Source of the DNA: a virus
DNA: 64,000 bases
IMG/VR virus record: IMGVR_UViG_3300045988_137032
Location: 64,001-128,000 of that record
Direction: 5' to 3' (one strand)
Under the pieces are notes generated by a model that saw only the letters and a list, made by a program, of their open reading frames with translations, ran no database searches and was not told the origin of the DNA. Positions within the stretch are counted from its first letter, which is position 1. Every line of letters begins with the position of its first letter. The position numbers were made by a program, and so were the translations under genes. Positions 742 to 49,502 of the stretch are shown one piece after another.

Positions 742-753
742 AACAATGCTTTA
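742..753 (+). promoter_or_regulatory. candidate class B promoter motif AACA-N6-TA
   Basis: cttgaAAACAatgcttTAaag, about 110 nt upstream of ATG 852; the same extended motif recurs at 8 other intergenic sites. Confidence 0.45.
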
Positions 754-851
754 AAGTTTGAGCTACTATAGTTACTCTTAGCTAATGATTGCTCAAGCTT
801 TCGTTACTAAGATTAGCTATAATTCTAAATAATAAAGGAGGTAATATCCCT

Positions 852-2123
852 ATGACTTATAGCGAATATTCGCGTATCATGGAGATCACAGAAGCAGAGA
901 CTGATAACGCTATGATCGATATCGATTTTATGTGGGAAAGTGCTTGTGCTTCTCATCGTCTTGATGTAGCGGATCTTGAATATCAGTTTGAGTCTGTGGA
1001 TGGATACGATCAGGATACCATGGTGCGGATGTATACTGAAGAAGCCAATGGCTTTATTGCAAAAGTCAAGGCTGCTTGGGATAAGTTCTGTAAGTGGGTA
1101 AAGAGTATCGTTGATAAGATCTTTAAGAAAACTCCTGATGAGAAAGCAGTGAAAGCTGCATCGGATAATAATCCTGAAGGAATCAAGCTTCCTTTTGATG
1201 TTGAAAAGACATCAAATGAGATGGATAAGGTTTCTTCTATGATGAATCCATCGTACATGAAGCGACTGATGAAGGATGTTGATACGCTTTCTCGCAAGGG
1301 TATTAAGGTCAATATCAATGTGAAGACGAAAAATCATAATTATGAGCACACACCCCTGCTGAACCAGTTCATTACAGGTATCGGTAATCTTCTTTCCGCA
1401 GCAGCAGCTCCTGCTGCAGGAGTTGTAAGCGTTGCTCTTCTTATGAAGCACATCAAGAAGACCGTTAACTTCAGTAAAAAGATTGATGAATGCACTAGCG
1501 GTCTGAAAGATTTTGCTAGTGAATCTCTTGGAGTTATTATGGCTCCTATTCGTGAGCTTCTGTCTACCGCACAGGGTCTCATGACTACTCTTACCGCTGC
1601 GATCGCTGGTCATAATAAGCATGAGCATGATCTGACTAAGAAGCCTGAAAAAACTTATGAGGTTAAATCTTCTAAGGATGTAAAGGGTGCTGCTAGTAGA
1701 TTACTGCTTGCTGCGAAAAATCGTGGTAAGGCGACAGAAAAATATGTAATTGATAGAACCAAGCGTCGATACGATGAATGTGTTAGCACATTTGACAGTG
1801 TTATGAAGACTGCTGGTTCCATTGACGGATTCAATGCATCTGAATTTAAATCTCTTTGTAAGGCTATTTCGGAAAAGAAAACGACTGATAATGATCAGGA
1901 TGTTGTAAAAGCACAGCAGATGATTGATAGTCTCAAGGATGATCAGCCTGAAGAGAAAAAGCAAGAATCCGTCATTAACGATGATACTGTATTCTCTTCC
2001 ATTTTTGAGAATACTTTCGCTAATGCTGATGCTTCGAAATTTGCACCCGATACAACAAGTGCTTTCCTTTCTACTCCTGATCAGAACATGAATGAAATCA
2101 TGGCTCTGCTGGATAACTTTTAA
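852..2123 (+). CDS. coiled-coil protein, tandem paralog family member 1 (putative virion-internal or scaffold-like; function unknown)
   Basis: RBS AAAGGAGG precedes ATG 852; the ORF-track start at 789 has no RBS. Shared amphipathic motif IAKVKAAWDKFCKWVKSIVDKIFKK. Gly/Ala-rich hydrophobic helix AAAAPAAGVVSVALLM. Confidence 0.85.
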   Translation: MTYSEYSRIMEITEAETDNAMIDIDFMWESACASHRLDVADLEYQFESVDGYDQDTMVRMYTEEANGFIAKVKAAWDKFCKWVKSIVDKIFKKTPDEKAVKAASDNNPEGIKLPFDVEKTSNEMDKVSSMMNPSYMKRLMKDVDTLSRKGIKVNINVKTKNHNYEHTPLLNQFITGIGNLLSAAAAPAAGVVSVALLMKHIKKTVNFSKKIDECTSGLKDFASESLGVIMAPIRELLSTAQGLMTTLTAAIAGHNKHEHDLTKKPEKTYEVKSSKDVKGAASRLLLAAKNRGKATEKYVIDRTKRRYDECVSTFDSVMKTAGSIDGFNASEFKSLCKAISEKKTTDNDQDVVKAQQMIDSLKDDQPEEKKQESVINDDTVFSSIFENTFANADASKFAPDTTSAFLSTPDQNMNEIMALLDNF

Positions 2124-2140
2124 GGAAGGAGGGAAATACA

Positions 2141-3139
2141 ATGTTTGATAAAGAAATTCTCGAATATGAAAATCAACTTCTGCATGATGAAGTTGATTTT
2201 GAACAGGCTTGCTATGAGCAGACTTTGAATCTTCGTAGAATCAAGAATAAGCTTGTTTTTGAAGATGCTATCATGGAGTCTGCTGATGTGGAAGAACTCT
2301 ATCTTGCTGAAGCGAAGGAAACGAAGAATAAGAAACAGGGAATCATTTCCCGTCTTATTGACACCATTAAGAATTTTATTAAGAAGATTATTAATAAGAT
2401 CACTGGTGGTAAGTTTGAAGCGAAAGCAGATAAGAAGGTTCCTGGTAATCCTCAGGAGCTCATCAAGTATGGCCGTCAGCTTATGCTGAAGGCAAAGACT
2501 GCATTGACTTCTCCTACTGCTGCAAAGATCGGTAAGGCTGCCGGCATTACCGCTGGTGCTGCGGCTGCTACTGGTGGTACTCTTTTTGTTATTTCTAAGG
2601 CAAAACAGGGTCCTACTCTGAAAGAAATCAAAGAATTCATGAACGATTCAACCAGACAACTTAATGCTTGTCAGGAGATCGTAAATGGTAACTATGTCGG
2701 CAATGTTGATAATGCACAGGCATACATCAATGAATTTGGTACTATCACAAGTCGCCTTAGTAAGATTATGAATGCCATCATGAGTGGTGGAGAACTTGAT
2801 ACACGCTCCAAAGACGATATCCGTCTTGCTGAAGATGGAAAGTCTCGTCTGAATGGTATGACGACTGAAGAGCTCAAGAAGAAGTACAATCAGATCAGTG
2901 AAGAGATTGATATTATCACAAAGCGTAGTAAATCTCTTAGCGTCAAGTATAAGCAGATGAAGAGTGCTCATGCTGATAAGAGTGGATATACGGGAACATA
3001 TATTGGCACTCGTAGAGATGCTGATGCAGAGCGTCTGGCAAAACTTCAGAATCAGCTTACTCAGGTAAAGAGTCTGCTTGCAGCATCTGCAACACGTGAT
3101 GCTAGACGTGATGACGTGGACCTTAATAAAAAGGGATAA
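2141..3139 (+). CDS. coiled-coil protein, paralog family member 2
   Basis: RBS GGAAGGAGGG; motif GIISRLIDTIKNFIKKIINKITG; hydrophobic GKAAGITAGAAAATGGTLFVI. Confidence 0.85.
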   Translation: MFDKEILEYENQLLHDEVDFEQACYEQTLNLRRIKNKLVFEDAIMESADVEELYLAEAKETKNKKQGIISRLIDTIKNFIKKIINKITGGKFEAKADKKVPGNPQELIKYGRQLMLKAKTALTSPTAAKIGKAAGITAGAAAATGGTLFVISKAKQGPTLKEIKEFMNDSTRQLNACQEIVNGNYVGNVDNAQAYINEFGTITSRLSKIMNAIMSGGELDTRSKDDIRLAEDGKSRLNGMTTEELKKKYNQISEEIDIITKRSKSLSVKYKQMKSAHADKSGYTGTYIGTRRDADAERLAKLQNQLTQVKSLLAASATRDARRDDVDLNKKG

Positions 3140-3165
3140 TTCCGCTAATGGAAATAACCCTTAAA

Positions 3166-3177
3166 AACAATAAGCTA
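3166..3177 (+). promoter_or_regulatory. candidate class B promoter motif AACA-N6-TA
   Basis: cttaaAAACAataagcTAag, 61 nt upstream of ATG 3227; an 18-mer TAAAAACAATAAGCTAAG is repeated on the minus strand at about 20958. Confidence 0.45.
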
Positions 3178-3226
3178 AGTTTCTAGGCTATTTTTCTCAA
3201 TTCTAAGATAAAGGAGTTGTAATAAA

Positions 3227-4423
3227 ATGAACGAAATTTTACGTGAGATCAACAGCGCTTATGATATCAATACGATGCGCATCAACGCTGTTGTTGAAGC
3301 TGCTAACCGTCAGCGTGAAATCAACTTCCATGAAGCTGAGCTGAAGGTTATGCAGGAATCTGGTACTGATGACGAACTGGCCATGCTGATCGAGGCTGCT
3401 GAGTCCGACTTCGTTGAGAATATTCAGAAGGCTCTGGATGCACTGCGTCAGGCTGTCATTAAGTTCTTCTCTGAGTGCCGTCAGAAGCTGGTTGATCTGA
3501 TGAGTAAGCGTGATGACGCTAACAAGCTGGATCAGCTGGAGAAGCGTATGAAGCTGATTCCTCTGATCGGCAAGAAGAAGGTCATGATCGAGGATTACGA
3601 TGCTGAGGTTGCTCTGGCAAAGAAGCATCTGAAGGATCTGGCTGGTCTGACTGCTAAGCTGCGCGGTAAGCAGGAAGTTGACGCTTCTGCTGTCGCTGCT
3701 GTGAAGAAGTCTTATGACGATGAGCATGGTGATCTGATCGGTGCTTCTAATGCTAAGACTGTCTCTATCAATGATGCAGTTAAGATGGCTAAGAAGATGA
3801 TTGCTTCTGGTAACGCTGAGCTGAAGGAGCGTGAGGAAACCGCTCTGAAGGCATGTGACGATGCTAAGAAGGACGCTGAGAAGGCTAATGCAAATGTGGC
3901 TAACCAGATTGCTAATGTGATCTGCCATATTTGCAAGACCGCTCAGAACGACTATCATCGTTGTGTGAACGGTATCATGGCTTCTATCAAGAAGGCCATT
4001 GGTGGCTATAAGGCTGAGCAGAAGACCGCTGAGAAGCCCGGTGTTAAGAATGAGTCTACTGACGACAGCGATGCAGAGATGGAGAAGCTTGCTAAGCAGC
4101 AGGCAGATACCAACTCTAAGGATTCTGTCGATGAGGATGCTGACGATGACGATATCGACATTGGCTTCGATATCGCAGGTGATGACGCTCTGACTGATGG
4201 TTTCGGAATTGATGATGTTGATTCCGATGACGACACTCTGGATGATCTTTCCATCGATGTTGACGATGACGACGACGATGAAGATGATGACGAGGATGAG
4301 TCCTGCTGCCGTGAGTCTGCTGATGATGCTTATCTGGCATCTCTGGCAGGCGTTGCTCTGGAGTCTACTCATGAGCATGAGGCTGGTTACAGCTCCCTGC
4401 TCGATGACATCATGAGCCTGTAA
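3227..4423 (+). CDS. coiled-coil protein, paralog family member 3, with poly-acidic C-terminal tail
   Basis: RBS AAAGGAG; motif NIQKALDALRQAVIKFFSECRQKLVDLM; Asp/Glu tract at about nt 4121-4300; strongly GC3-biased codons (a full-length mirror ORF lies on the other strand). Confidence 0.85.
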   Translation: MNEILREINSAYDINTMRINAVVEAANRQREINFHEAELKVMQESGTDDELAMLIEAAESDFVENIQKALDALRQAVIKFFSECRQKLVDLMSKRDDANKLDQLEKRMKLIPLIGKKKVMIEDYDAEVALAKKHLKDLAGLTAKLRGKQEVDASAVAAVKKSYDDEHGDLIGASNAKTVSINDAVKMAKKMIASGNAELKEREETALKACDDAKKDAEKANANVANQIANVICHICKTAQNDYHRCVNGIMASIKKAIGGYKAEQKTAEKPGVKNESTDDSDAEMEKLAKQQADTNSKDSVDEDADDDDIDIGFDIAGDDALTDGFGIDDVDSDDDTLDDLSIDVDDDDDDEDDDEDESCCRESADDAYLASLAGVALESTHEHEAGYSSLLDDIMSL

Positions 4424-5858: not shown

Positions 5859-6671
5859 ATGGTAAGAACTGATCAAGCTTATATCAATCAGTACCTCGTC
5901 TATGACGAGGTGTTTGAAGCTTGTGAAGCATGTGAAAAAGCATGTGTAGAAGCTGATTATTTCCTGCGTAAAGAAGCTCGTAAGAGTTATCTTGATACTT
6001 ACTTTTCTGAAGCACTAAACGTCGGTGCTAAGAAGAATGATAAGACGGAAGATAACATCTTTGCTAAGATCGGTAAGGCTATCGTTGCTCTTATTGAGAA
6101 GATTAAGAAGGGTATCAAGCATATTACCGATGCTATTCTTGGTAGTGAGCGTCGCAATGCAAAAACAAATTCTGCCGTCCAGAAGATCATTGCTGAGAAT
6201 CCTGAACTGAAGAAGGATATCATCAAGGGTGTTCGTAATGAATGGTTCACATCATATGATGTTGCTGGCTATAAGAATGATATCATCGGTCTGATTAATA
6301 TGATTGATCAGGCTAAGATCGATAATGCTACAGCAATGGATAAGTTTAAGATGTCAACCGAGAAGTTCCGTAAAGGCACTGTTAAGGTTATTGCAGGTGC
6401 TGGTGCAGCAACTGCTCTCTTTAAATTCGTTACCGAATTGAATAATCAGCGTAAAGCTCTTCGTGATATGGCTACCGACGTCCAGAAGCTTTGTGAAAAG
6501 AAGAAGGAAGAAGCCGAGAAGAAGGGTAAGGATGCTGGTGTAATTAGCAACGTACTTCGTATTATCACCAGCACTATCCAGGTTCTTTTTGGTATTGATA
6601 AACAGCTTGAAGACAATACTAAGAATATCGAAAACCATGTCGAAAGTGCAACTGGTGTAAATAAATCTTAA
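5859..6671 (+). CDS. coiled-coil protein, paralog family member 5
   Basis: RBS AAAGGAAGGTG before ATG 5859; motif IFAKIGKAIVALIEKIKKGIKHITDAILG; hydrophobic VIAGAGAATALFKFV. Confidence 0.85.
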   Translation: MVRTDQAYINQYLVYDEVFEACEACEKACVEADYFLRKEARKSYLDTYFSEALNVGAKKNDKTEDNIFAKIGKAIVALIEKIKKGIKHITDAILGSERRNAKTNSAVQKIIAENPELKKDIIKGVRNEWFTSYDVAGYKNDIIGLINMIDQAKIDNATAMDKFKMSTEKFRKGTVKVIAGAGAATALFKFVTELNNQRKALRDMATDVQKLCEKKKEEAEKKGKDAGVISNVLRIITSTIQVLFGIDKQLEDNTKNIENHVESATGVNKS

Positions 6672-6693: not shown

Positions 6694-9438
6694 ATGGATA
6701 ATGGTCTCCGTATTTTGAACTCGTTTGTGGTTGATCATAAGCGAGCAGAGACTGGCTTCTCTCAGCAGAATTTCATTTCCAATATGAAGTTCTTCTCGGA
6801 AGCATATACTATTGATTCTAAGATCATCAATCAGCTTTACGATTCTACGATCTATGGTCGCTACATTGCTATGGCTGTTGATAATCTCAATGCAATGAAG
6901 TGCGTTGATTACGCATATCTGGATAAGTTCTTCTCTGATGTATATACATCTGCTCCTCTTGAAGGTAAAGGTATTACCATTGGCCTTCAGGATGTTAGTG
7001 AGATTGAGAAGATTCGTCCTGAATATCTTTCCTCTATTCCTGTCTTCTTTGATAATTACCTGAAGGCTATTCTGGCTGGTAATAAGAAAAAGAGCGACAT
7101 TGATAGAGAAGTTCTCAATGGCGCATTTAAGGATCGACTGAAGCGTCAGCTTGTCAAAACAACTCTTACTGTGAATGATACTCGTGATCTTATGAAGCTT
7201 GATTCTCCGAATCTGGTTAAGGTTGATGAGACATTCATTGCAAATAATATCATTCCCTTTATCCGTGCATATGCTCAGGAGGTTGATCTCCTTACTCGTA
7301 TTGCGGAACAGACGATTGCTCGTATTGGCGGTGCCAATGATGACATTAAGTCTTCCATTGAAGCGCTGAATGAGATGATTTCTTCCAATAAGCTGGATAA
7401 TGGTACCATTTATAATACGAAGTATTTTGCATTCAATATGCAGAGTCAGTATATGAGCATTTGTGCTTATATTTCTGCTATGCTGATTCGTAAGATTGCA
7501 TATTATACTTATAATATGCGTGCTATTCAGCATCTGTATAATGTCATCATTGCTTACTTCCCGGAAGCAGAATCTATTCTTCATGAGTCTGTGCTGGATG
7601 GCCGTCTTGATGATATTGATTCTACTGAACTTCTTGATTCTATGATTGGTGATGATCTTAGTATCATCATCCCTAAAATTCGGGATACAGTAAATCGCAA
7701 GAAGATTGAGATTGCCAATCTTGCAGCAAAGCACATGAATATGAAGCTTTCTGCTATGGATGACATCAATCACCATGAAGGTGATTATGACGATACTCCG
7801 TATCTGGAACTGAGTAATACTTTCAATCAGATTGCAAAAACTCTTCATGAGTTTGAGCTGGCTATCAAGAATCCGGAAGCCGTGATGGATGATGTAATCA
7901 CGAATCTCGGTCTTGATGAAAGCTTTGTCACAAAGTACATGGATGTTGTAAATAAGGCTCGTGATACTTCTGCATATGATTCTATGATTAGCAATCATAT
8001 GACGGATGCTGCTGCGAAATCTCTTTACAATGAGATTTCTGATTTTGAGAAGAATACTTCATCCATCTCTTCTACAGCAACCAAGGTGTATCTGTATATC
8101 CAGGCTCTTGAGAAAGCTTATGATGTAAACAATGGTCATCTTGATAATCCGACTTATATCGAGGCTAAGGAAGTCATCGATAACATCATGTCGGATTATA
8201 AGGAGTATTGCCTGTCGGTTGCACGTTGTATTGTGAATCGTCTGGATAACCTGTCTCATATTCTCATTGAGAACTTCGATGACGAGCGTCAGATGATTGA
8301 AGCAACTGTGTATCCTTCTGAGAACGTAGACTTCTATGAAGCAACCAATTTCGTTGCTGAGTATGATTATGTCTTGAAGGAATCTGCTGATCTGTTCACT
8401 GACCTCATGAAGGACTATAAGGCTATGAAAGCACAGCGTGACCGTGGTGTTAAGCTTGTCTATGAAGCTGAAGGTGATCAGAACGGCCAGCAGAATGGTC
8501 AGACAAATGGTCAGCAGAACGGCGATCAGAAGGCTGACGCTGCATCTGCTAAGACTGCTGAGGTTAAGGTTGATGGAACGTCAACTACTAAGGCAGAAAC
8601 TAATGCAAACTCCAATAATGGTAAGTCTGATGCTAATACCAAGGGTATCATTCAGGCATTCATTGACGCTATTAAGAAGATCAAGAATAAGTGGTTTGAT
8701 AAGGTGAAGATGCTTATTGCTAAGCATAGTAACTGGCTGAATAAGGTTAAGTACAAACTTCAAAACGTCGATGCCAATAAGATCACTATGAATCTTGCTG
8801 ATTATAGCGAAGTGAGCGAAAATATTATTACTGGTCATATCAATACTGCCGTTACGAAGATTAATAGTATCAATGCTGATAACCTTCCGAACGAGATTAA
8901 GAATGGTAGTAATAATGCTCAGAAGTTCTTGTTCCCGAATGTGCCGCAGATCAATGGTGCAGAGAATTTCAAGGAAAATCTTTCTCTGTATTATATCTGG
9001 GGTAAGAATGCAAAGTCTGATCCTAAGCAGAATAAGCTTACTACTTATACAGGCGATAGTGCAACTGAAAAGATCAATGGCATGATTGAATACTGTGATA
9101 AGTATTTCACCATGTGTGATAATCTGAATAAGCTGATGGATAATCTGATTAAGGCCGCTGGTGATAAGCAGAAGGCTGCTAATGATAGCAAGAAGGAAGG
9201 AAATACTGACCAGAATCAGGCTCAGCAGAATAACGATAAGACAAATCTGAATCGTGTTCTCACTGATACTTGCAGAGATTTCATGACTTCTACTATGACT
9301 GCTTGTGAGAAGAAGTACATGGACTACATGACAGTTCTTCGCAAGATTTCTCCTGAGAGTGCAGAAACACCTCCTGAGAATAAGGAAGAGAAGCCTGCTG
9401 AAGGTGAACAACCGAAGCAAGAAGAGTCTAAGGGCTAA
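6694..9438 (+). CDS. large (914 aa) protein carrying the family motif in its C-terminal third
   Basis: RBS GGAAAGGAGG; motif GIIQAFIDAIKKIKNKWFDKVKMLIAKH; NGQ-rich low-complexity linker; Lys/Glu/Pro-rich C-terminus. Confidence 0.85.
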   Translation: MDNGLRILNSFVVDHKRAETGFSQQNFISNMKFFSEAYTIDSKIINQLYDSTIYGRYIAMAVDNLNAMKCVDYAYLDKFFSDVYTSAPLEGKGITIGLQDVSEIEKIRPEYLSSIPVFFDNYLKAILAGNKKKSDIDREVLNGAFKDRLKRQLVKTTLTVNDTRDLMKLDSPNLVKVDETFIANNIIPFIRAYAQEVDLLTRIAEQTIARIGGANDDIKSSIEALNEMISSNKLDNGTIYNTKYFAFNMQSQYMSICAYISAMLIRKIAYYTYNMRAIQHLYNVIIAYFPEAESILHESVLDGRLDDIDSTELLDSMIGDDLSIIIPKIRDTVNRKKIEIANLAAKHMNMKLSAMDDINHHEGDYDDTPYLELSNTFNQIAKTLHEFELAIKNPEAVMDDVITNLGLDESFVTKYMDVVNKARDTSAYDSMISNHMTDAAAKSLYNEISDFEKNTSSISSTATKVYLYIQALEKAYDVNNGHLDNPTYIEAKEVIDNIMSDYKEYCLSVARCIVNRLDNLSHILIENFDDERQMIEATVYPSENVDFYEATNFVAEYDYVLKESADLFTDLMKDYKAMKAQRDRGVKLVYEAEGDQNGQQNGQTNGQQNGDQKADAASAKTAEVKVDGTSTTKAETNANSNNGKSDANTKGIIQAFIDAIKKIKNKWFDKVKMLIAKHSNWLNKVKYKLQNVDANKITMNLADYSEVSENIITGHINTAVTKINSINADNLPNEIKNGSNNAQKFLFPNVPQINGAENFKENLSLYYIWGKNAKSDPKQNKLTTYTGDSATEKINGMIEYCDKYFTMCDNLNKLMDNLIKAAGDKQKAANDSKKEGNTDQNQAQQNNDKTNLNRVLTDTCRDFMTSTMTACEKKYMDYMTVLRKISPESAETPPENKEEKPAEGEQPKQEESKG

Positions 9439-9440
9439 TA

Positions 9441-9484
9441 AATACAGGTAAGAATCTTATATTTAGATTCTTACCTGTATTTTT
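9441..9484. terminator. bidirectional hairpin terminator between convergent genes
   Basis: 17-bp stem AATACAGGTAAGAATCT / AGATTCTTACCTGTATT plus T-run. Confidence 0.8.
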
Positions 9485-10769
9485 AAGCCATTACGGTTTT
9501 CTTTAATACCACAGTACTAATTACATCAAACTCACAGTTGTTACCATTGAAGATATTTACACATGTTCCAATTCGATATGTACCACCATACTTACTATGA
9601 AGCAATTGGTTCTCAAAGATTACTGTGCATTCTTTATTCGGAGTTAATCCAAGAATATCGACATTTTGCATAGCAATTGTGAGCATCATGTTATTTCCTG
9701 TCTGGATTGCTTGATATACTGTGGACTTATATGGATTAGAAGAATTATTATACAGCGTCGTCTTATTTGCATTACCAACGATATTCTGTTTGCTTGCTTT
9801 TGCAGTAGATGCACTATTCGCTTTCATATCCACAATGTCTGCTTCTGTACCATCAATGACATTACCAGAAACACTTGCACTATGAATCGAAATACTACTA
9901 CTCGATACGTTGTAGTAGTAATGCTCATCTTTTGGCTTTTCGAGCATATTACTCATATAAGAATGAGTATTCTTCTTATCCATTACATAGAAGACAGATT
10001 CTTTCCATTCTTTCTTCTTGTATGTAGTACATCCGCCTTTACAGTCAATGATATATCCATTATTGAATCCAAAAAATATTGTAGTGCCATATTGATGGAA
10101 ACCTACGTTATTATTTAGATACTTTAATTGCTTATCAATTGACTGCGGAGGTAATACCATCTCAGAATAACTCTTTGTATTCTGCAATGGAGACATCAAT
10201 ACATCACTCACTCCTGCTTGAGAAAGTAAATACGAAATTGCAGTAGTCATATCAACTTCCTGCATAATCACATTTACTTGTTTCCGTAAGCCACTTACCC
10301 AATCTTTTTTGAATAAGAATAGCTCAACCATATTGAGTAGTTCTTCAAGCTTATTGACGTCTTTCTTTGTATCTCCCTCTTCTTTTAGTTGCTGCTCATA
10401 GTCCTGATTTTCATCATCTGCAAATAATACAAATTTTGTATTAAATACATCTCTATCACAGCTCTTACTTTCCGTAAGGGTATTACCGGAATACTTTCGA
10501 TAGAAAGACTGAAGTCTCACGATGATTTCTACTTTATTCTTATTCTTAATCATCGCGTAGTAACGAGATGCTTCAAGTAGCACATTTACTTTGAAGATGG
10601 GGAAAGTAGCATCATCATAATAATTCTCAATCTTGAATGTCTGGATTCTTTCCAGAGGAATTTCATCTTCTTTACCATCGATAGAAATCGTAAACTTTGA
10701 AATCTTGTATTTGTATTCAAGAAATCTATCTTTCTTTTCATCAATGGTAAGGGATTGTGTCGTAGCCAT
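9483..10769 (-). CDS. hypothetical protein (weak resemblance to gpD/gp27-type baseplate hub N-terminus)
   Basis: 428-aa ORF with an upstream GGAAGGAG. The N-terminal pattern IQTFKIENYYDDATFPIFKVNVLLEA is only loosely hub-like, so the function is not established. Confidence 0.7.
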   Translation of the reverse strand: MATTQSLTIDEKKDRFLEYKYKISKFTISIDGKEDEIPLERIQTFKIENYYDDATFPIFKVNVLLEASRYYAMIKNKNKVEIIVRLQSFYRKYSGNTLTESKSCDRDVFNTKFVLFADDENQDYEQQLKEEGDTKKDVNKLEELLNMVELFLFKKDWVSGLRKQVNVIMQEVDMTTAISYLLSQAGVSDVLMSPLQNTKSYSEMVLPPQSIDKQLKYLNNNVGFHQYGTTIFFGFNNGYIIDCKGGCTTYKKKEWKESVFYVMDKKNTHSYMSNMLEKPKDEHYYYNVSSSSISIHSASVSGNVIDGTEADIVDMKANSASTAKASKQNIVGNANKTTLYNNSSNPYKSTVYQAIQTGNNMMLTIAMQNVDILGLTPNKECTVIFENQLLHSKYGGTYRIGTCVNIFNGNNCEFDVISTVVLKKTVMA

Positions 10770-14301: not shown

Positions 14302-15075
14302 TTATACCATGTAAATTGGTGTATTATCGTTCGCAGCAAATTTTTCTTTTGCTGTTTCTAAGTATCTTAAGAAGATTTCATTTTGCTTATTTGTGACCTT
14401 CAGGTAATTAAACTGATTGGAATTTGTCTTCATGACTTGATCTTTAAGTCTTTCTTTTACTTTATCAACATCCTGAATCTTATGGTGCATATTTGGATTG
14501 TCTCCACCATCTTTTACTTCAATCTCCAAATTAAGAGAAGGAATAAAGAAGTCAGGAATGTAAAAATGCTGCTTTCCATCATACATGTAGTTGTACGTAT
14601 GAGGGGAAGGAGCCATGACGTCAGAAGACGGAAAATCCATAATCTTATCAAGGAATTCAAGGAAGGATAATTCATAGCTTCCTGTATAAGGAAGCTTCTT
14701 ACTCCCATCACTCCATGTATAGACGCCGCTAATACTTCTATTAGCGAGCATTTTCTTCTGTTGATCCGGATCATTTAAGAGCGTAATCTTTCCATAGGAA
14801 CCAATCATACGCTTCTTAAACATTTCTCGATATGCAATTTTGCATTTCGGATTATCACAAAAACGCTTATACTTCTTCGTCTTTGGATTCCATCCAGTAG
14901 GTTTTTTGCACATGACACAATTACCATGTGTCCTACCGGTCTTCATATAATAGTAAAATTGATATGCATCCATGTCAGGTGGAATCATGTCAATATGTGC
15001 TTTCTCAAGATGAGCAGCCATTGCATCTGCGTCAGGAAATACTTTTCCGCAGAATTTGCATTTAATTGAAGGCAT
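14302..15075 (-). CDS. zinc-finger protein with TnsA-N/PD-(D/E)xK-like nuclease core
   Basis: C2H2-like CKFCGKVFPDADAMAAHLEKAH and CVMC...CDNPKC. Nuclease pattern GSYELSFLEFL ... YIPDFFIPSLNLEIEVKD (S-x-x-E, PDF, E-x-K). Confidence 0.5.
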   Translation of the reverse strand: MPSIKCKFCGKVFPDADAMAAHLEKAHIDMIPPDMDAYQFYYYMKTGRTHGNCVMCKKPTGWNPKTKKYKRFCDNPKCKIAYREMFKKRMIGSYGKITLLNDPDQQKKMLANRSISGVYTWSDGSKKLPYTGSYELSFLEFLDKIMDFPSSDVMAPSPHTYNYMYDGKQHFYIPDFFIPSLNLEIEVKDGGDNPNMHHKIQDVDKVKERLKDQVMKTNSNQFNYLKVTNKQNEIFLRYLETAKEKFAANDNTPIYMV

Positions 15076-17992: not shown

Positions 17993-17994
17993 AG

Positions 17995-24553: not shown

Positions 24554-24684
24554 GTGAGAGTCCCTCCTAGTTGAATATTTGGGTCGCACTAAGATAATAT
24601 GGAAAACTTTAAGGGAAAATAAGACACACTCTATATACTTTTAAGGAGGGTCTATTAAATCTATCAAAGTGTTACCCGGGGTGT

Positions 24685-39960: not shown

Positions 39961-41376
39961 TTAACAAGTGCAGAAGTTGTACAGGTTGATCTTCTCACAC
40001 TTATCAATCATGAAGTAGTTATTCAGTTTACCAGTATCACGACTGATCATCATACGAGAGACGGGATCGAACTTGCGGAATGCATGTTCGAGTTCTTTGT
40101 CCATAAGGCCGATGATATTCAGAATATCACCATCGAAGTCTGCATTCAAACCAGGAAGAACGCTCAGAGGAACCGACAGAGTAAAGTCAGATACATCAGA
40201 CTTAATGCTGCGGATATCCATCAGAAGCATGCTGTAATAGTTCAGAGTAGGATTTCGGTTGATGATAATCTTTGGATGCTCCTTATTGACGATGAAGCAC
40301 ATAACCTGATAAATCTTCGGATCAAACTTATAAGCATTGCGATAACGCTCATAAGCTTTTGCCAGAGGAATATCATCCAGCTTCATCAGCCATTCAATGA
40401 TCTTGAACTTAAACATCTCAAGGAAGGTATTGTAACTCAGATCAACCTCAGAGTCACGCAGAGTAGGATTCGGGATAATGACATTACGAGAGGTGTAGTT
40501 TAATGCACCACCGAGAATCTGTCCACGAATCCAACCTTCCTTACCATTCAAGGCATCGAAGTTTTCATCCCAGATATCATTGACACGACCCTGGATGCTA
40601 TGCAGGATATATGCACGATCAATATCCTCGCTGTTCTTGAGCTTATCGCTCAGACTAAACAGCGGGTTGATATTACGGTCGATTGTATTGTAGTAGTAAG
40701 TATCAGTAGTCGTAGACTGAGGACGAAGAAGAGTAGAGTAGATAGGAATGTGTGAAGTAAACACAGCACTCTTTTCACTCTTAATGCGATCAAGTTCATT
40801 GATCGCACTCTTCTTTTTGGTCTTAACGAACTCAATGATTTCATCGAAGTTCTCTTTGAATTCGACAAGACCAATTCCACCAAATCCACCAAGAGCCGCC
40901 TGCTCTTCAGGATCAAAGTATCTCTTTCTCTGACCATCCACGTCAACGATGTACTTATCGTTGATCATGGCCTCCAACATACCTTTCTTCATACAAGAAG
41001 ACAACTTCTTATAGTAGAAAGGATTGATGATGAAATTATCACCCAGTGCAATCCAACCAGTGAATTCGATGTTGACATCTTCGTACTTCACAGGCTTTCC
41101 GCAGATGGGACAAATTTCACCAGCGAACATCTTCCCTTTGAATGCACCACATTCACAGCGATAACGCTCAATGAATGCGTTCTCGTCTTCGTAGTTCGTT
41201 CCGTACAGTGGCGAACGAGCACCATAAAGACTCTTCTGTTTCGTGTCATCAAACTTGATAACTGCGGGCTCCGTAATGGTAAACCCGTTATTCGTCAGGA
41301 TGTCATTTACATATTCAACGTCCCAATTCAACCGCTTAATACGCACACGGTTTTTCCCATGCTTGTGCTTGCCCAT
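39961..41376 (-). CDS. multisubunit RNA polymerase beta-prime-like subunit, N-terminal half (set 2)
   Basis: Zn finger CECGAFKGKMFAGEICPICG; RGQILGGALNYTSRNVIIP (compare LLGKRVDYSGRSVI); catalytic LNADFDGDILN. Confidence 0.85.
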   Translation of the reverse strand: MGKHKHGKNRVRIKRLNWDVEYVNDILTNNGFTITEPAVIKFDDTKQKSLYGARSPLYGTNYEDENAFIERYRCECGAFKGKMFAGEICPICGKPVKYEDVNIEFTGWIALGDNFIINPFYYKKLSSCMKKGMLEAMINDKYIVDVDGQRKRYFDPEEQAALGGFGGIGLVEFKENFDEIIEFVKTKKKSAINELDRIKSEKSAVFTSHIPIYSTLLRPQSTTTDTYYYNTIDRNINPLFSLSDKLKNSEDIDRAYILHSIQGRVNDIWDENFDALNGKEGWIRGQILGGALNYTSRNVIIPNPTLRDSEVDLSYNTFLEMFKFKIIEWLMKLDDIPLAKAYERYRNAYKFDPKIYQVMCFIVNKEHPKIIINRNPTLNYYSMLLMDIRSIKSDVSDFTLSVPLSVLPGLNADFDGDILNIIGLMDKELEHAFRKFDPVSRMMISRDTGKLNNYFMIDKCEKINLYNFCTC

Positions 41377-41455: not shown

Positions 41456-41983
41456 TTATTCGTTTTCATTCTTATCTTTCTTCTTCTCAACGTAAAAGTT
41501 TCCTTCTTTTACGAGAGTATTGCAAGGGTCACACATTGTAGAAGCAAGATAATCACATCTCTCATTATCTGGATTTCCATCATGGCCTTTTACCCAGACG
41601 AAAGATACCTTATGCGGCTCTTTTGCTTTCAGAAGTCTCTCCCAAAGATCCTGATTCTTTACGGGTCCTCCAGTTCTTGTCTTCCACCCATTCCGTTTCC
41701 AGTTATACATCCAACGCTTATTGAAAGCATTGACGATATAAGAAGAATCAGAATAGATACGAATCATGGAAGGCTCTGTGACTCTTTCAAGACCAATGAT
41801 AACTCCCATGAGTTCCATCTTATTATTGGTAGTTACAGGAGAACCACCAGCAAATTCTTCAATGGATTCAAACTCATTGGAATCTTTCTTGTATACCTTT
41901 ACGATTGCTGCATATCCACCAGGGCCTCTCGGATTTGCTTTTGCAGCACCATCTGTAAAGATATCAACGTGACGCATCTCCAT
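41456..41983 (-). CDS. rnhA: ribonuclease HI
   Basis: VDIFTDGAAKANPRGPGGYAAIV; ELMGVIIGLE; IRIYSDSSYIVNAF; VKGHDGNPDNERCDYLA (DEDD RNase H pattern). Confidence 0.85.
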   Translation of the reverse strand: MEMRHVDIFTDGAAKANPRGPGGYAAIVKVYKKDSNEFESIEEFAGGSPVTTNNKMELMGVIIGLERVTEPSMIRIYSDSSYIVNAFNKRWMYNWKRNGWKTRTGGPVKNQDLWERLLKAKEPHKVSFVWVKGHDGNPDNERCDYLASTMCDPCNTLVKEGNFYVEKKKDKNENE

Positions 41984-42165
41984 TAATCTACCTCCTTAGC
42001 ATCAATCGTTATAAATATTGGAACTTGCGGAATATATCCGCATTCTTTACATGGTATCATATCTAGTCCAGCGTGATATGTTTTACCACATTTACATTGG
42101 TAAAATTGTATAGATGTACGTATTCCTCCATCAATGATTTTTATAATTTGAGTTTCTACTTTCAT
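41983..42165 (-). CDS. small zinc-ribbon protein
   Basis: CKCG...CKECG; RBS AAAGGAGG; TAATG overlap with rnhA. Confidence 0.65.
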   Translation of the reverse strand: MKVETQIIKIIDGGIRTSIQFYQCKCGKTYHAGLDMIPCKECGYIPQVPIFITIDAKEVD

Positions 42166-42194: not shown

Positions 42195-42204
42195 TATAAC
42201 ATAT
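42195..42204 (-). promoter_or_regulatory. class A-prime promoter core ATATGTTATA
   Basis: minus strand reads gattgATATGTTATAactttg, about 30 nt upstream of start 42165 (operon: zinc ribbon, rnhA, beta-prime). Confidence 0.35.
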
Positions 42205-42792: not shown

Positions 42793-44019
42793 ATGGCTAT
42801 TTTAATCAATGAGCAAAAGCTCATGGATGATAATGCGTTTAAATTTGAGAATCGATTGAATACTCAGATTACACGCTTTCTCGATAAATCTCCTGTATTT
42901 GTCACATACTACCATGTGAGTGCAGATGAGGTCACAACTGATGGCGGATACAAAGACGTAGAAGAAATCTACGGTAAGAATTCACCTCTTCGTTATAAGA
43001 AGATTGAGAATTTCCCTCTGTATGGATTGGATACAGTCCAGCTTGCTATTCAGGATACAGATCAAGGTCTTGATACAGATTATCAGGGAGATGCAGTATC
43101 TCTTCCCAATACAATCAAACCTCTTCAGAATGACTTCTTTACCATCAATCATGTAAAGAAAGGAACTTTCCTTTTCCGTGTCATTCAGGTTGATTATGAT
43201 AATATTAGACCGGATAACTTCTATAAGATTACCTATCGTTTGGAATCTCTTGAAGAATCCGTTTTGAATAATATCAATGATCAAGTTAATGAGAAATACA
43301 CTTGCATCTTAGAGAATATTGGTAGTGAGAATAACTGTATCATCGAAGAAAGTTACTATGAGCAATTACAGAAAGTGGATGCACTTTACAATGACATGGT
43401 TGATACGTATAAGAGTATCTTCTATAGTCCTCGGTATAATTGCTTCTTAGGTGAGACTGCAATTGGTATGAAGATCTATGATCCGTTGCAGTCCGTTTTC
43501 ATGAATAAGCACGGCCTTCTCACACGAGCTACTGATCTGAGTGCTATCATGCTGACTGAGATGTTTGCTGATAGGAAGCGTCAGATTAAATACGAGAGAA
43601 GTATTTACCGTTTCTTTGAGCGTAGAGATCTCAGTATTATCAGTAACTTCAAGTATTATCTGTATCAGGGAATGGATCGAAAAGATTCTGCATTCTATAT
43701 GTGGCAGGATGAATCTGTCATGTATGTGGAAGTACCTGAGAAGGCTGTATTCGATAAGAATGCTCCAAATGAGCTTCTTCCTATCGAACTCGTAAATAGC
43801 TTCAAGATGAATGCACCTACAGTGTCTCCGTATGTAGATCTCATGCAGAAGTTTATCCGTAAGGATCCTCTTACCATTTACGATATTCCTCTTAACTTAA
43901 ATGAGGAACTTCTTAAATTGGATGCAAATGAGGAAGTGTATTTCTATACACCGATTCTTCTGTATATCATCAAATCTGTCACGGAAGAATTCCTTCATAC
44001 GAAGAAATCCATTTCATAA
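42793..44019 (+). CDS. hypothetical protein
   Basis: RBS GAAAGGAGAG; 408 aa. Confidence 0.8.
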   Translation: MAILINEQKLMDDNAFKFENRLNTQITRFLDKSPVFVTYYHVSADEVTTDGGYKDVEEIYGKNSPLRYKKIENFPLYGLDTVQLAIQDTDQGLDTDYQGDAVSLPNTIKPLQNDFFTINHVKKGTFLFRVIQVDYDNIRPDNFYKITYRLESLEESVLNNINDQVNEKYTCILENIGSENNCIIEESYYEQLQKVDALYNDMVDTYKSIFYSPRYNCFLGETAIGMKIYDPLQSVFMNKHGLLTRATDLSAIMLTEMFADRKRQIKYERSIYRFFERRDLSIISNFKYYLYQGMDRKDSAFYMWQDESVMYVEVPEKAVFDKNAPNELLPIELVNSFKMNAPTVSPYVDLMQKFIRKDPLTIYDIPLNLNEELLKLDANEEVYFYTPILLYIIKSVTEEFLHTKKSIS

Positions 44020-44073: not shown

Positions 44074-46368
44074 TTAGGCTTCTCCGCGAAGACCAGTCTC
44101 ATCAACTACGGTATCCTCCTTAAAGGCGGGTACATTATCGTACTCACTCTTATCAGGACCAATCACGTAGTCGGTGTTCTTAAGCTGCTCCATAACAAGC
44201 TTCTTGAACTCATCAGCATCCATAAGTCCCTGATTTGCAAGGACTTCTTTCTCGATTTCCTTCTTACGCTTGAGAAGCATGAATTGATATTCGGTGCACA
44301 TATACTCCTCATCATCCAGAGTATATACGTTGATGTGATCATCGTCATATTCCCGAATCTCATCTTCATCGTCTACGAATTCAATCTTGATGCCAAGACT
44401 CTTCAGATAGACAGCAAAGATTTCATTGACACGTGAAGTGTATGTCTTAGGCAGGACAAATTCATCCTTACCCTCAACAAGGTTCTTTGCGAGATCACGA
44501 CGAGCACCAGAAGATGCACGATAGAACAGGTTGAACAGCTGGATATCTTCAGGCTCCACCGCAATAGAGAAGTTGAGCGTCTCAAACTCGCCAAAACGAA
44601 TCGGAGTAGAAGACCGAAGCTCTGTGAAGTTCTTATTCCGGTAACTTCTTTCCGGAAGTCCCTTCGTATTCACAGAACCAGTGCTACGAACACTGAAGCC
44701 CTTACGAGAAGTCTGCTTCAGTTTCAAGATGTACATCTCTCCACAATACATGGGATTGAGCATCTTTATCTGACGACCAAACCGATTGATGTAAACATCG
44801 TAGGGTTTCAGGAAATCGTACTTATCGAAAATCTTAAGGAACCGATAGAAGATAGGTTCATGCTCCCACATAGGTTTCTGATGAATATAGATACGATTAT
44901 TCATTGCATCGTTGATATAATCATCTTTATCCTTTTCAGAGAGCTTGTCGTAGACTTCCTTCATACGATCGTGCTGTTCGGGGTTAAAGTCGTTGATGAT
45001 ATCGAAAAGAAGTTTCTCACGTTCTTTCCGAGTTTTCTTCATCTTCATCTGATCACGGACTTTATTGCAGATGAAGTTGATTGTGATTTCATAGATTGGG
45101 AATGCAGTCGTACGGTTAATGATTGCCAACACATTGAAGAGCAAGTCAACCGTCACCTTATTACCACAATCATCGAAATAATACGGCATCTGGTCATCCG
45201 GACGAATCTCGGAAATAACGCATTTATTACCGTATCGACCAGTAATCTTCTGACCGATATCCAGATGGACAATACCCTTTACCGTAATCTCGATAAAGAC
45301 ATTGGAGAAGAGAGAATCCTGATTCTTCCAGCGCTTCGTATCATCAAGGAACTCAACTGCTCTCTTGTAGATATAATTGATTTCTTTAGAATACTTTGCG
45401 CCAGAATCAAAGATCTTCTCACAGGCATCTTTGATCTGTTCATAGTAGACTTTCTGGCTATTCAGATACTTCAGAATCTGATGGTTAAACGGAGTATCTT
45501 CCATTTCCGGATTATTCGAATAGATGGTAATATCCACAACCTGACCATTCTTGAAATACGAGATATCGCCTTCTCCACTACGAGACAAAGAGTCGTCTTT
45601 AAATTCACTCAGAAGCTGATCTTTGCTAAGAGCACGTTTTGCTGCTACTTCGCCAGTAGCATATTCTCCAATATCAGGGAACGGCTTATACTCACCGTCT
45701 TCACCATAAAGATTCAGAAGGAATTCGTTGTCGTTCACACTAATAGGAACCTGATTGATTTCGATGCTGTCCATTTTATTCCGCATGCTCTCGGAAATAA
45801 CAGCAGCATCTTCGGACGTGGAGGAATCTGTCACATACATAATGTGGACGTTCTTACCATAACCATAGTTCATGGTTTCATCGTAAGAACGAGACTTCTT
45901 TACAACAGTACCCTTCGGAATCTTATCGCCAATATCGAGTCCATCAATGTACTCGTTATTGTATTCGTATCCGAAGACTTCTGTCAGAGATTCGGAATCT
46001 CCGCGTTTCCATACTTCGTAATAGTCGTTTTTCTTGTCATACACGAAAAGCATGTAAGTAGTAGGATGATCAACGATATCCTCATACTTTACAACTTTAT
46101 CAACGACAACATAGTTACCTTTTGCTTCCCGATAACCACTAGAATGCTTACCAACGACATTTTCGCCATTGGTAAAGACACCAGGAAAGTCAGGGTTTAA
46201 AAGGTTCACAGTCTGCCGAAGATGAGAGGTAAACATAATGGAACGCATTGATGAGTTATACTGTGGAATACCCATCATGGTCATGCCGATTAAGCTATTA
46301 GAACCTTGCAGTTCTTCATTTGCTCTAAGCAGCATTTCCTTGTTAGAATACTTGACGTTTTCTGCCAT
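44074..46368 (-). CDS. multisubunit RNA polymerase beta-like subunit, C-terminal half
   Basis: FTSHLRQTVNLL (compare NMQRQAVP); GRYGNKCVISEIRPDDQMPY (compare GRHGNKGV); MYILKLKQTSRKGFSVRSTGS (compare YMLKL.H.VDDK.HARSTGP); PIRFGEFETLN (compare GGQRFGEME). Confidence 0.85.
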   Translation of the reverse strand: MAENVKYSNKEMLLRANEELQGSNSLIGMTMMGIPQYNSSMRSIMFTSHLRQTVNLLNPDFPGVFTNGENVVGKHSSGYREAKGNYVVVDKVVKYEDIVDHPTTYMLFVYDKKNDYYEVWKRGDSESLTEVFGYEYNNEYIDGLDIGDKIPKGTVVKKSRSYDETMNYGYGKNVHIMYVTDSSTSEDAAVISESMRNKMDSIEINQVPISVNDNEFLLNLYGEDGEYKPFPDIGEYATGEVAAKRALSKDQLLSEFKDDSLSRSGEGDISYFKNGQVVDITIYSNNPEMEDTPFNHQILKYLNSQKVYYEQIKDACEKIFDSGAKYSKEINYIYKRAVEFLDDTKRWKNQDSLFSNVFIEITVKGIVHLDIGQKITGRYGNKCVISEIRPDDQMPYYFDDCGNKVTVDLLFNVLAIINRTTAFPIYEITINFICNKVRDQMKMKKTRKEREKLLFDIINDFNPEQHDRMKEVYDKLSEKDKDDYINDAMNNRIYIHQKPMWEHEPIFYRFLKIFDKYDFLKPYDVYINRFGRQIKMLNPMYCGEMYILKLKQTSRKGFSVRSTGSVNTKGLPERSYRNKNFTELRSSTPIRFGEFETLNFSIAVEPEDIQLFNLFYRASSGARRDLAKNLVEGKDEFVLPKTYTSRVNEIFAVYLKSLGIKIEFVDDEDEIREYDDDHINVYTLDDEEYMCTEYQFMLLKRKKEIEKEVLANQGLMDADEFKKLVMEQLKNTDYVIGPDKSEYDNVPAFKEDTVVDETGLRGEA

Positions 46369-46432: not shown

Positions 46433-46442
46433 TATAACATAT
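46433..46442 (-). promoter_or_regulatory. class A-prime promoter core ATATGTTATA
   Basis: minus strand reads aattATATGTTATAcccatgtgatag, about 65 nt upstream of start 46368. Confidence 0.35.
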
Positions 46443-48478: not shown

Positions 48479-48515
48479 TACTAGGTAATACTTACAGACA
48501 GATAATAGAAAGGCG

Positions 48516-48722
48516 GTGAATAATATCCTTATGAATATCCAAAAGATATTAGAACTACCTACCATAGAAATAGTGATTTGCATATTGGTTGCTATTAACA
48601 TGAGACTATTATCGCTCATATCAAAACAGCATATACGTAAGCCGAGGAGAACTTATTCCGGAGCATGCGTTATATTAATTCTATTTTATATGATCCTGTG
48701 GGTGTTGAGCAATATGCAATGA
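48516..48722 (+). CDS. small two-TM protein (holin-like topology; start uncertain, GTG 48516 or ATG 48531)
   Basis: hydrophobic IEIVICILVAINMRLLSLI and GACVILILFYMILWVLS; followed by a hairpin at 48724-48768. Confidence 0.5.
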   Translation: MNNILMNIQKILELPTIEIVICILVAINMRLLSLISKQHIRKPRRTYSGACVILILFYMILWVLSNMQ

Positions 48723-48809
48723 TGAATAGAATATCCCTCTGTATGAAAATACATGGGGATATTCTATTCTCATGTCCACATCAAGATAATGAAAGGAGTC
48801 TGATTATGT

Positions 48810-49154
48810 ATGCAAGAAATCAAATCAATCAAGTTCCACGGATACCTTGGATGGCTGGTGCTTAATACAGGAGAAGAGGTTCCATTGGATCCAGTAACGG
48901 ATAACAACATCATCGATCTTTGTTACAATAAGAAATCGAAGATATTGAAACCGTTACGGGATATCATGGAAGGAATTTACTTCTTAGTAGCCGAATCTCC
49001 ATTGTACCAGCATCCATTGAAAGGAAGAGCAGCTTTTGGCGTATACGTCATTCATTTGGCAACTATGAAATGTGCACCAAGTAAGTACAAAGAACTTGAT
49101 GGTACATACGTGCTATCGTACAACGATAATCGTGTTATGAAAGTGAGAAATTGA
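48810..49154 (+). CDS. hypothetical protein
   Basis: RBS GAAAGGAG; 114 aa. Confidence 0.7.
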   Translation: MQEIKSIKFHGYLGWLVLNTGEEVPLDPVTDNNIIDLCYNKKSKILKPLRDIMEGIYFLVAESPLYQHPLKGRAAFGVYVIHLATMKCAPSKYKELDGTYVLSYNDNRVMKVRN

Positions 49155-49156
49155 TT

Positions 49157-49489
49157 ATGGCTAACAACAACGCAGTATATCAGCAGATGACAAACGTCAG
49201 CATTCCTCGTGATCGTTTGATGTGGCTCGCAGCAGATGATGCTATGAGTAAGAAAGCATACAAGGTAATGCTTTGCTTATTTACTCAGCTGGATGGGTAT
49301 AATAAGATTACCCAAAGACGTACGAAGGATCCTCTCAACTTCAAGATGATCGATTTCAAGGCAATTTCCAGTGCAATCGGTGTTTCCAAGAAAGAAGTGA
49401 AAGAAATCGTCGGTGAACTCATTGATGCAGATTATATTGAGATGGGTTCTTCCGATACGATCAATGAGGGATATCGTTTTACCTTCTAA
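49157..49489 (+). CDS. putative winged-helix DNA-binding protein
   Basis: ATG 2 nt after the upstream TGA. KAYKVMLCLFTQLDGYN...FKAISSAIGVSKKEVKEIVGELIDADYIEM resembles a MarR/replisome-organiser-type wHTH, recognised by pattern only. Confidence 0.6.
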   Translation: MANNNAVYQQMTNVSIPRDRLMWLAADDAMSKKAYKVMLCLFTQLDGYNKITQRRTKDPLNFKMIDFKAISSAIGVSKKEVKEIVGELIDADYIEMGSSDTINEGYRFTF

Positions 49490-49490
49490 A

Positions 49491-49502
49491 AACAATGGTT
49501 TA
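49491..49502 (+). promoter_or_regulatory. candidate class B promoter motif AACA-N6-TA
   Basis: tctaaAAACAatggttTAat, 40 nt upstream of ATG 49531. Confidence 0.4.

Follow-up and report, generated by a model that had tools for sequence, protein, structure and literature searches.

Probable AR9-type late promoters in an uncultured human-gut jumbo phage and its relatives

Transcription in AR9, a jumbo phage of Bacillus, is independent of the host RNA polymerase (RNAP) (PMC5312081, PMC7598289). Its late motif is AACA-(6N)-TA/G, the last base of which is the transcription start (PMC5312081); a review gives it as A-11 ACA-(6N)-U A/G+1 (PMC7598289). The motif was present at 94 of the 118 non-early starts mapped in AR9 (Lavysh et al., PMC5312081) and has been proven to be a promoter by differential RNA sequencing (dRNA-seq), primer extension and in vitro transcription with the purified non-virion RNAP (nvRNAP) (PMC5312081, PMC7598289). 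The late promoters of such phages have been described as unpredictable from sequence (PMC7598289). In AR9 and PBS1 the nvRNAP consists of five subunits, namely gp270, gp154, gp105 and gp089 plus the specificity subunit gp226. Here we examine a stretch of 64,000 nucleotides (positions 64,001 to 128,000 of the IMG/VR record IMGVR_UViG_3300045988_137032, hereafter the window) from an uncultured human-gut jumbo phage of about 260 kb, in which nine intergenic sites carry a motif of this kind. We consider it very probable that these sites, along with a few N-ACA variants, are AR9-type late promoters read by the nvRNAP of the phage itself.

Other described systems resemble the window in part. The late promoters read by the phiKZ nvRNAP (T-3 ATG+1; specificity subunit gp68) belong to a shared two-polymerase strategy and consist of a very short element beside the start, but their consensus is different and lacks an upstream AACA block. 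Promoters of the sigma-70 type likewise have a conserved element about 10 nt before the start, which in AR9 is read by a structurally sigma-like subunit. Unlike these, the window sites have no -35/-10 pair, and the AR9 element is read on the template rather than the non-template strand (PMC7598289). The Staphylococcus jumbo phages MarsHill, Madawaska and S6, which are relatives of AR9, share the two RNAP sets with the gut phages, as well as an early motif like that of AR9, TATATTAT. Motif discovery in MarsHill recovered no late promoter, whereas the late motif of the gut family is visible from the sequence.

The motif in the window and its counterpart in AR9

The nine sites had been listed in an earlier note on this DNA, and all were present as described when both strands were checked. 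Their coordinates refer to the first A of AACA for the plus-strand sites (742, 3166, 5803, 29447 and 49491) and to the lowest position, the A of TA that is the predicted +1, for the minus-strand sites (15109, 20958, 22736 and 25002). The pattern AAACA-N6-TAA matched exactly nine times on the two strands of the whole window, precisely at these sites, as compared with a mean of 3.95 matches in dinucleotide-shuffled versions of the window, 1 of 100 of which reached nine. As the note had also claimed, every site is intergenic and oriented toward the next gene, with 40-110 nt from AACA to the ATG.

Position relative to genes was assessed with a gene map based on codon usage and ribosome-binding sites, which leaves just 9.7% of the window outside genes. 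Of the 22 copies of the short AR9 consensus, AACA-N6-TA, 15 were intergenic, and 9 of the 10 copies of AAACA-N6-TA were intergenic, co-oriented with the next gene and located at most 110 nt from its start. With the control spacings N5 and N7 the intergenic copies numbered 7 of 27 and 0 of 21, respectively. The 55 upstream zones of the window, 5,389 nt in total, contained nine copies of AACA-N6-TAA in gene orientation, while spacings of N3-N5 and N7-N9 each gave zero or one copy. When these zones were shuffled 5,000 times, the count averaged 1.26 and never reached nine.

Alignment of the nine sites yielded the consensus a-a-A-T-A-g-C-C-c-T-T-r-A-A-A-A-C-A-a-N5-T-A-A-g/t. With a weight matrix covering positions -6 to +13, the nine obtained 18.5-24.1 bits, and no other site in the window exceeded 11.9 bits; this ranking is circular since the matrix was trained on the same nine sites, yet the gap is still large. 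The sites at 3166 and 20958 do share an identical 18-mer, TAAAAACAATAAGCTAAG, as had been pointed out. Many of the sites are immediately preceded by terminator-like hairpins.

The AR9 late consensus cited in the earlier note is correct, and the form AACA(N6)TW is also in use. We recomputed the AR9 logo from 84 sites in AR9 Table S3, re-extracted from the AR9 genome. AACA occupied positions -11 to -8 in 83 of the 84 sites, position -1 was T in 91%, and position +1 was A in 78% and G in 18%. The window sites agree with AR9/PBS1 in the AACA core, the 6-nt spacer before TA, position, orientation and short leaders. They agree also in the orthologous genes that lie downstream. Mapped late starts with AACA-N6-TA in Table S3 include those of g233 (35-nt leader), g232 (36 nt), g189 (26 nt) and g145 (22 nt), while the late starts of g007 and g020 have a shifted or imperfect motif. 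In the window, the full motif precedes the orthologues of g233 (predicted leader 34 nt) and g189 (predicted leader 43 nt), and the orthologues of g232 and g145 are preceded by TACA and GACA variants, respectively. Leaders in Table S3 are mostly 20-50 nt long, and the predicted leaders of 124 sites in the gut-phage family have a median of 34 nt.

The differences from AR9 are also consistent. Within the window clade the motif is longer than in AR9, with C-T-T-r-A-A at -17 to -12 and A at +2 (cTTrAAAACA-N6-TAAg). The preference of AR9 for A at -3 is absent, the +1 position is only A in contrast to the G of a minority of AR9 starts, and the base at -11 can be G or T depending on gene and lineage. 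The G+C content is 39% in the window as against about 28% in AR9, and the habitat is the anaerobic human gut.

Conservation in relatives and the polymerase genes

Outside the window, the two 10-kb flanks of the source contig contained seven further copies of AACA-N6-TAA, all seven upstream of co-oriented genes, among them genes for a g214-like virion protein and a tail-fibre-repeat protein. Across the window and flanks, about 84 kb of the phage, 16 of 17 copies were in promoter position. The lone off-position copy, at 29278, is located 223 nt before a virion-RNAP gene and falls in the 3' end of the gene for NrdG.

A megablast search with 9 kb of the window against GenBank phages gave no match, and relatives were reached at the protein level only. 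The window proteins pointed to a group of jumbo phages that encode two multisubunit RNAPs, and exact copies of window proteins were found in human-gut metagenome contigs of 256-262 kb. By scanning IMG/VR with the g233-like protein, we collected 58 loci from phages of 200-266 kb, with 44-92% protein identity. In nearly all lineages [A/G/T]ACA-N6-TAA was kept at about -40 to -60 upstream of the g233-like gene, while the six spacer bases and the flanks varied, down to 44% protein identity. Comparable footprints were seen in many lineages before the genes for virion-RNAP beta'-N and the baseplate wedge. Relatives without the cTTGAA extension retained N-ACA-N6-TAA, and GACA was preferred in the G+C-richer lineages.

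To quantify the enrichment in the family, we used 22 non-redundant related loci of about 410 kb, in which the co-oriented upstream zone covers 3.9% of positions. This zone contained 74 of the 152 copies of AACA-N6-TAA, a 12.6-fold enrichment, and [G/T]ACA-N6-TAA was enriched 6.9-fold. The corresponding values were 1.1 for N5, 1.3 for N7, 1.2 for the reverse-complemented core and 0.6 for AACA-N6-TG. When AR9 was run through the same pipeline, AACA-N6-TA was enriched 5.5-fold and the N5 and N7 controls yielded values of 0.4-0.6. The signal in the gut family is therefore at least as strong as in AR9, where the promoters are proven.

The variants at -11 follow patterns of their own. Two GACA-N6-TA variants had been noted before and are present at 17995 (before 18047) and 42747 (before 42793). 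Upstream of the virion-RNAP beta'-N gene, where the window has GACA, the loci L006, L054, L055 and L057 have GACA as well, and AACA is found in L007, a relative with 89% identity. The TACA core before the baseplate-wedge gene was kept in ten representative related loci (L006, L007, L014, L018, L037, L038, L039, L045, L046 and L050); the recurrence of T at -11 (TACA-N6-TAA) before this gene across many lineages suggests gene-specific tuning of promoter strength or timing.

By sequence comparison, the nvRNAP subunits encoded in the window (Table 1) are much closer to those of AR9 than to those of phiKZ. The beta-C product matches chain C of the AR9 nvRNAP structures 7S00, 7S01, 7UM0 and 7UM1, and its phiKZ counterpart only with E=2.5e-16. 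In a tblastn ranking with beta-C, AR9/PBS1 came out best, followed by the Staphylococcus S6/MarsHill group, Listeria LPJP1 and Yersinia phiR1-37.

A second, early-type motif, ATATATTATA, occurs in 14 exact copies in the window, all 14 intergenic, and is often extended to TATAATGATATATTATA. The AR9 early consensus is AAATATATATTAT-N6-G (PMC5312081), and the AT-rich early motif of the gut phage resembles it in the common core ATATATTAT. Copies with one mismatch precede the nvRNAP subunit genes, as listed in Table 1. The two motif classes thus split the genes as in AR9. In IMG/VR, many contigs from related phages contain the exact early 17-mer, and in several cases a gp226-like gene follows immediately downstream.

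The case for AR9-type late promoters builds on direct observations of the motif, its spacing, position, orientation and conservation in the family, and of the orthology of polymerase and target genes to those of AR9. The AR9-type transcription strategy suggested in the earlier note, here with two polymerases, gained support from the RNAP orthology, the mapped AR9 starts, the conservation and the early motif. By analogy with AR9, the polymerase packaged in the virion would transcribe early genes from the AT-rich ATATATTATA-type promoters, among them the genes for nvRNAP subunits (44074-46368 and 39961-41376). Once made, the nvRNAP would join with a sigma-like fifth subunit akin to gp226 and read the -11 to -8 block on the template strand, a mode of recognition extrapolated from AR9. 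Within the conserved TAA, initiation would fall on the A that is 11 nt past the first A of AACA (A-11 A C A-8, N6, T-1, A+1). The resulting leaders of 29-99 nt would head the virion-polymerase genes, baseplate-adjacent genes, a virion block, lysis-type genes and other non-early genes.

Several observations weigh against this interpretation. The nvRNAP beta-N and beta'-C genes were not found in the 84 kb of window and flanks or in the scattered loci of the nearest relatives; beta-N and beta'-C homologues occur in the related contigs L190, L092 and L206. A homologue of gp226, the search for which had been proposed in the earlier note, was recovered in many relatives but not in the window, its flanks or the nearest-clade loci, a search that combined direct phmmer and tblastn runs with three successively broader family hidden Markov models (HMMs) applied to all open reading frames (ORFs). 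Pattern scans of IMG/VR (alignments A1 and A2) and two profile searches of a set of 5.8 billion proteins yielded no gp226 of the window clade, nor was one reached with GroEL as a syntenic anchor. Furthermore, a weight matrix built from the 84 AR9 promoters alone ranked the nine sites from 4th to beyond 40th in the window. Specificity would thus lie partly on positions that are not conserved in AR9 and are specific to the lineage; since the A/T preferences in the AR9 spacer amount to noise, the match to AR9 is limited to core and spacing and does not extend to the logo as a whole. The downstream genes are not all obviously structural, two exceptions being the endonuclease gene and the leader gene of the helicase operon; AR9 likewise has late promoters before g233 and g007 (Table S3). 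Finally, it is through homology with AR9 that we assign a start position, late timing and a reading enzyme.

The gp226-like subunit of the window phage is very likely encoded elsewhere in its genome, given that nvRNAP core subunits (beta-C and beta'-N) are encoded in the window and that gp226 homologues exist in clades at 50-67% identity. In relatives, the genes of the gp226 family encode 460-600 amino acids (aa) and are often located within 10 kb of the g233-like gene; some have the gene order GroEL-g227-gp226, as in AR9, and some come immediately after the 17-mer of the early promoter. Three family members considered as the homologue of the window clade (P0046, P0110 and P0088) belong to other clades. 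Two window genes considered as substitutes for gp226 were rejected since profile-profile comparison revealed no similarity to the gp226 family. The first, at 12983-14287 (434 aa), is co-transcribed with the g233-like gene, and the second, at 51802-53595, has fold matches only to small helix-turn-helix proteins in the PDB.

The gut-phage family has genomes of about 200-266 kb with 24-44% G+C and occurs in many metagenomes. A transcription system of the AR9 type is very probably common to this large, uncultured and apparently abundant family of human-gut jumbo phages, and its consensus is extended enough for prediction from sequence alone across a wide range of base compositions. The motif thereby yields ready predicted transcription units for the family. 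It also offers a natural comparative series, with AACA, GACA and TACA cores, presence or absence of the upstream extension and variable residues in the 2.1bis helix, for studying the specificity residues of the gp226-like and beta-N subunits.

Uracil DNA and other readings of the motif

The promoters could be a strict copy of those in AR9, with deoxyuridine (dU) replacing T in the DNA and an nvRNAP that needs 3'-UUGU-5' on the template strand. This would be a special case of the AR9-type promoter reading that concerns only the nature of the DNA, and we regard it as rather unlikely. Consistent with dU, the closest cultured relatives by beta-C (AR9/PBS1, the S6/MarsHill-like phages and Yersinia phiR1-37) have genomes in which dU is reported or presumed (PMC5312081, PMC7598289), and core and spacing are the same as in AR9. 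The beta-N homologue of the related contig L190 has kept R363 and K375, which are residues of the -10U pocket. Neither thymidylate synthase nor dUTPase was detected among the scanned window proteins or the precomputed Pfam matches of neighbouring loci, which represent a fragment of the genome. However, searches of the window and of some 2 Mb of fragmentary related loci yielded neither a Ugi homologue nor one of the AR9 dCMP deaminase; unrelated Ugi folds would escape such searches. Whereas the dU DNA of MarsHill-type phages resisted standard library amplification based on PCR, this phage and its relatives assemble readily as contigs of about 250-262 kb from many ordinary metagenomes. A longer motif would presumably also lessen the need for a chemical self-mark.

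Residue V206 of AR9 gp226 excludes thymine, and its C-beta is said to clash with the methyl group of thymine. V206 is invariant in the closest AR9-like (Bacillus-phage) gp226 homologues that we recovered, P0001-P0016, but the equivalent column is highly variable among 181 aligned family members (I, P, V, L, T, A, S, K, M, G and R), a result that depends on the alignment. We rejected V206 as an indicator of dU: the column is uninformative, since nearly all of the substitutions retain the clashing C-beta.

Altogether, the tests lean mildly against the dU content that the earlier note had raised as pure speculation, and ordinary thymine DNA is somewhat more likely. Rather unlikely, too, is that the gut family at large combines AR9-type template-strand recognition with dU genomes like those of its cultured relatives. 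In that case, gut viromics would systematically mis-sample the family, and unknown inhibitors of uracil-DNA glycosylase would be expected. Alternatively, the AR9 mechanism may have been re-adapted to thymine DNA, with the -17 to -12 element, the A at +2 and a changed 2.1bis pocket replacing uracil as the self-mark. The motif also makes the occurrence of uracil DNA in gut relatives of AR9 a concrete and testable question.

The remaining alternatives concern the function of the motif itself. An oriented intergenic signal other than a promoter, such as an RNA processing site, a leader element or a binding site for a phage regulator, is a very improbable explanation. Sequence by itself cannot tell processing sites and transcription starts apart, the gene downstream always has the motif on its sense strand, and the two long leaders have extra sequence in common. 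Yet the same motif is a proven promoter in AR9, many of the sites come directly after terminator-like hairpins, where a new transcription unit would be expected to begin, and no RNA family in Rfam matched the window.

Very improbable as well is a promoter for the host RNAP, used with a host sigma factor or with a redirecting factor of the phage. The candidate for the latter would be the product of 51802-53595 (+), a protein of 597 aa whose gene lies behind an early-type promoter motif. Residues 44-107 form a helix-turn-helix like that of sigma-70 region 4 (best match SigA of PDB 7L7B, E=7e-6), and the upstream part of the late-type motif, cTTGAAA, loosely resembles TTGACA. On the other hand, a -35/-10 pair in fixed position is missing from all nine sites, the closest matches having 2-4 mismatches at scattered offsets, and the conserved blocks are separated by 6 nt rather than 17. 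Core, spacing and gene set are those of the AR9 nvRNAP promoters, which operate in a phage whose transcription does not depend on the host polymerase, and the core persists in the relatives that lack the cTTGAA extension. Outside the helix-turn-helix, the 51802-53595 product had no sequence or fold match and no similarity to sigma region 2, and its AlphaFold model (pLDDT 77) matched neither gp226 in 7S00 nor phiKZ gp68. Its family is tiny, with 10 matches among 1.84 billion representative proteins, and L118 encodes a paralogue or orthologue with 27% identity.

Chance, an artefact of AT-rich composition or the inheritance of upstream regions with duplicated paralogues is negligible as an explanation: the intergenic DNA is A+T-rich, some downstream genes are paralogous and two sites share the 18-mer, but the upstream-zone shuffles never reached the observed count, the enrichment is confined to the 6-nt spacing, the flanks of the nine sites are unrelated to each other outside the motif, and orthologous sites keep core and spacing while N6 differs.

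Coordinates and further features of the window

The sites taken here as probable AR9-type late promoters are listed in Table 1 together with variants, early-type motifs and genes. The AR9 counterparts were identified by comparing every window protein with the genome of AR9 in a local tblastn search.

Table 1. Promoter-like motifs and annotated genes in the window, with predicted starts and AR9 counterparts
Feature	Position	Strand	Remarks
Late-type core AACAATGCTTTAA	742..754	+	predicted +1 753; predicted leader 99 nt to 852-2123, then 2141-3139; terminator-like hairpin just 5'
Late-type core AACAATAAGCTAA	3166..3178	+	predicted +1 3177; predicted leader 50 nt to 3227-4423
Late-type core AACACATCTTTAA	5803..5815	+	predicted +1 5814; predicted leader 45 nt to 5859-6671 and 6694-9438
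Late-type core AACACTGGAATAA	15108..15120	-	predicted +1 15109; predicted leader 34 nt to 14302-15075 (g233 orthologue), then 12983-14287
Late-type core AACAATAAGCTAA	20957..20969	-	predicted +1 20958; predicted leader 67 nt to 20568-20891 and 20113-20571
Late-type core AACAAGTCTATAA	22735..22747	-	predicted +1 22736; predicted leader 33 nt to 22302-22703
Late-type core AACAATCCTGTAA	25001..25013	-	predicted +1 25002; predicted leader 39 nt to 24748-24963, upstream of helicase gene 22793-24553
Late-type core AACAAACTCTTAA	29447..29459	+	predicted +1 29458; predicted leader 43 nt to 29501-33847 (g189 orthologue)
Late-type core AACAATGGTTTAA	49491..49503	+	predicted +1 49502; predicted leader 29 nt to 49531-49977, then hydrolase gene 50109-51020
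TACA variant TACACTCATTTAA	15152..15164	+	before 15206-15619, baseplate wedge, g232 orthologue
GACA variant GACAGTATCGTAA	17995..18007	+	before 18047-19594, virion RNAP beta'-N, g145 orthologue
GACA variant GACATTAGTTTAA	42747..42759	+	before 42793-44019, g165 homologue
Weak, tentative candidate AACACTTTGATAG	24661..24673	-	120 nt before helicase gene 22793-24553; lacks the upstream extension
Early-type motif ATATATTATA, examples	12980(-), 21022(+), 21319(+), 36353(-), 38834(-), 38861(-), 46566(+), 48469(+), 51407(+), 51735(+), 61752(-)		
Early-type motif ATATGTTATA, one mismatch	46433..46442	-	74 nt before nvRNAP beta-C gene
Early-type motif ATATGTTATA, one mismatch	42195..42204	-	head of operon 41983-42165 / RNase H / nvRNAP beta'-N
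nvRNAP beta-C subunit gene	44074-46368	-	AR9 gp089 orthologue; PDB 7S00_C E=3.5e-103
nvRNAP beta'-N subunit gene	39961-41376	-	AR9 gp270 orthologue; 7S00_d E ~5e-40 vs 4.7e-18 for phiKZ
Virion RNAP beta-like subunit	29501-33847	+	AR9 g189
Virion RNAP beta'-N	18047-19594	+	AR9 g145
Zn-finger endonuclease	14302-15075	-	AR9 g233, 44% identity
Baseplate-wedge gene, gp25-like	15206-15619	+	AR9 g232
	15643-17352		AR9 g231
DnaB-like helicase	22793-24553	-	AR9 g007
RNase H	41456-41983	-	AR9 g241
Virion structural protein	42793-44019	+	AR9 g165
Cell-wall hydrolase	50109-51020	+	AR9 g020
	9483-10769	-	AR9 g218
	10809-11888	-	AR9 g220

In the left flank, homologues of two virion proteins of AR9, g214 and g215, precede the gene block behind the 5803 site. 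The anaerobic host assumed in the earlier note is plausible in view of the origin from human gut metagenomes and the presence of genes for the anaerobic ribonucleotide reductase NrdD at 25092-28232 (+), which contains an intein (Intein_splicing match, aa 451-736), and its activase NrdG downstream at 28639-29319 (+). The gene at 33927-34448 (-) encodes a 173-aa protein with a precomputed Pfam match to PemK toxins, and the phage genome thus encodes a toxin-like gene. In the related contig L311, a gene for an IS605 OrfB / Cas12f-like TnpB is inserted at 17968-19224 (-), beside a helicase gene; contig L310, which is otherwise collinear, lacks the TnpB gene.

The two longest predicted leaders, at 753-851 and 20892-20958(-) (99 and 67 nt), have TGATTGCTC in common and also share a ACTATAAT-A-AAGGA block directly before the ribosome-binding site. 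The 5803 site also has CACTATAATAAAGGA. These leader sequences may represent a leader structure or a translation signal.

A tRNA-Leu(TAA) is encoded at 57600-57673 (-), and a late-type variant, TACAAACTATTAG (TACA-N6-TAG), at 57689-57701 (-) has its predicted start 17 nt upstream of this tRNA. The only tRNA of AR9 has a mapped late start (Table S3).

An element of about 40 nt, CAAAAAACCTAACAAATGCTATGCATTTGTTAGTTAAATAG, which corresponds to neither the early nor the late motif, is present in three plus-strand copies at about 56047-56090, 56517-56560 and 57074-57117. It contains a perfect 11-bp inverted repeat, and the copies are located 35-60 nt before small plus-strand genes at 56123, 56600 and 57145, with TTGACAAATG after two of them. 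The element may act as an operator or belong to a third class of promoters.

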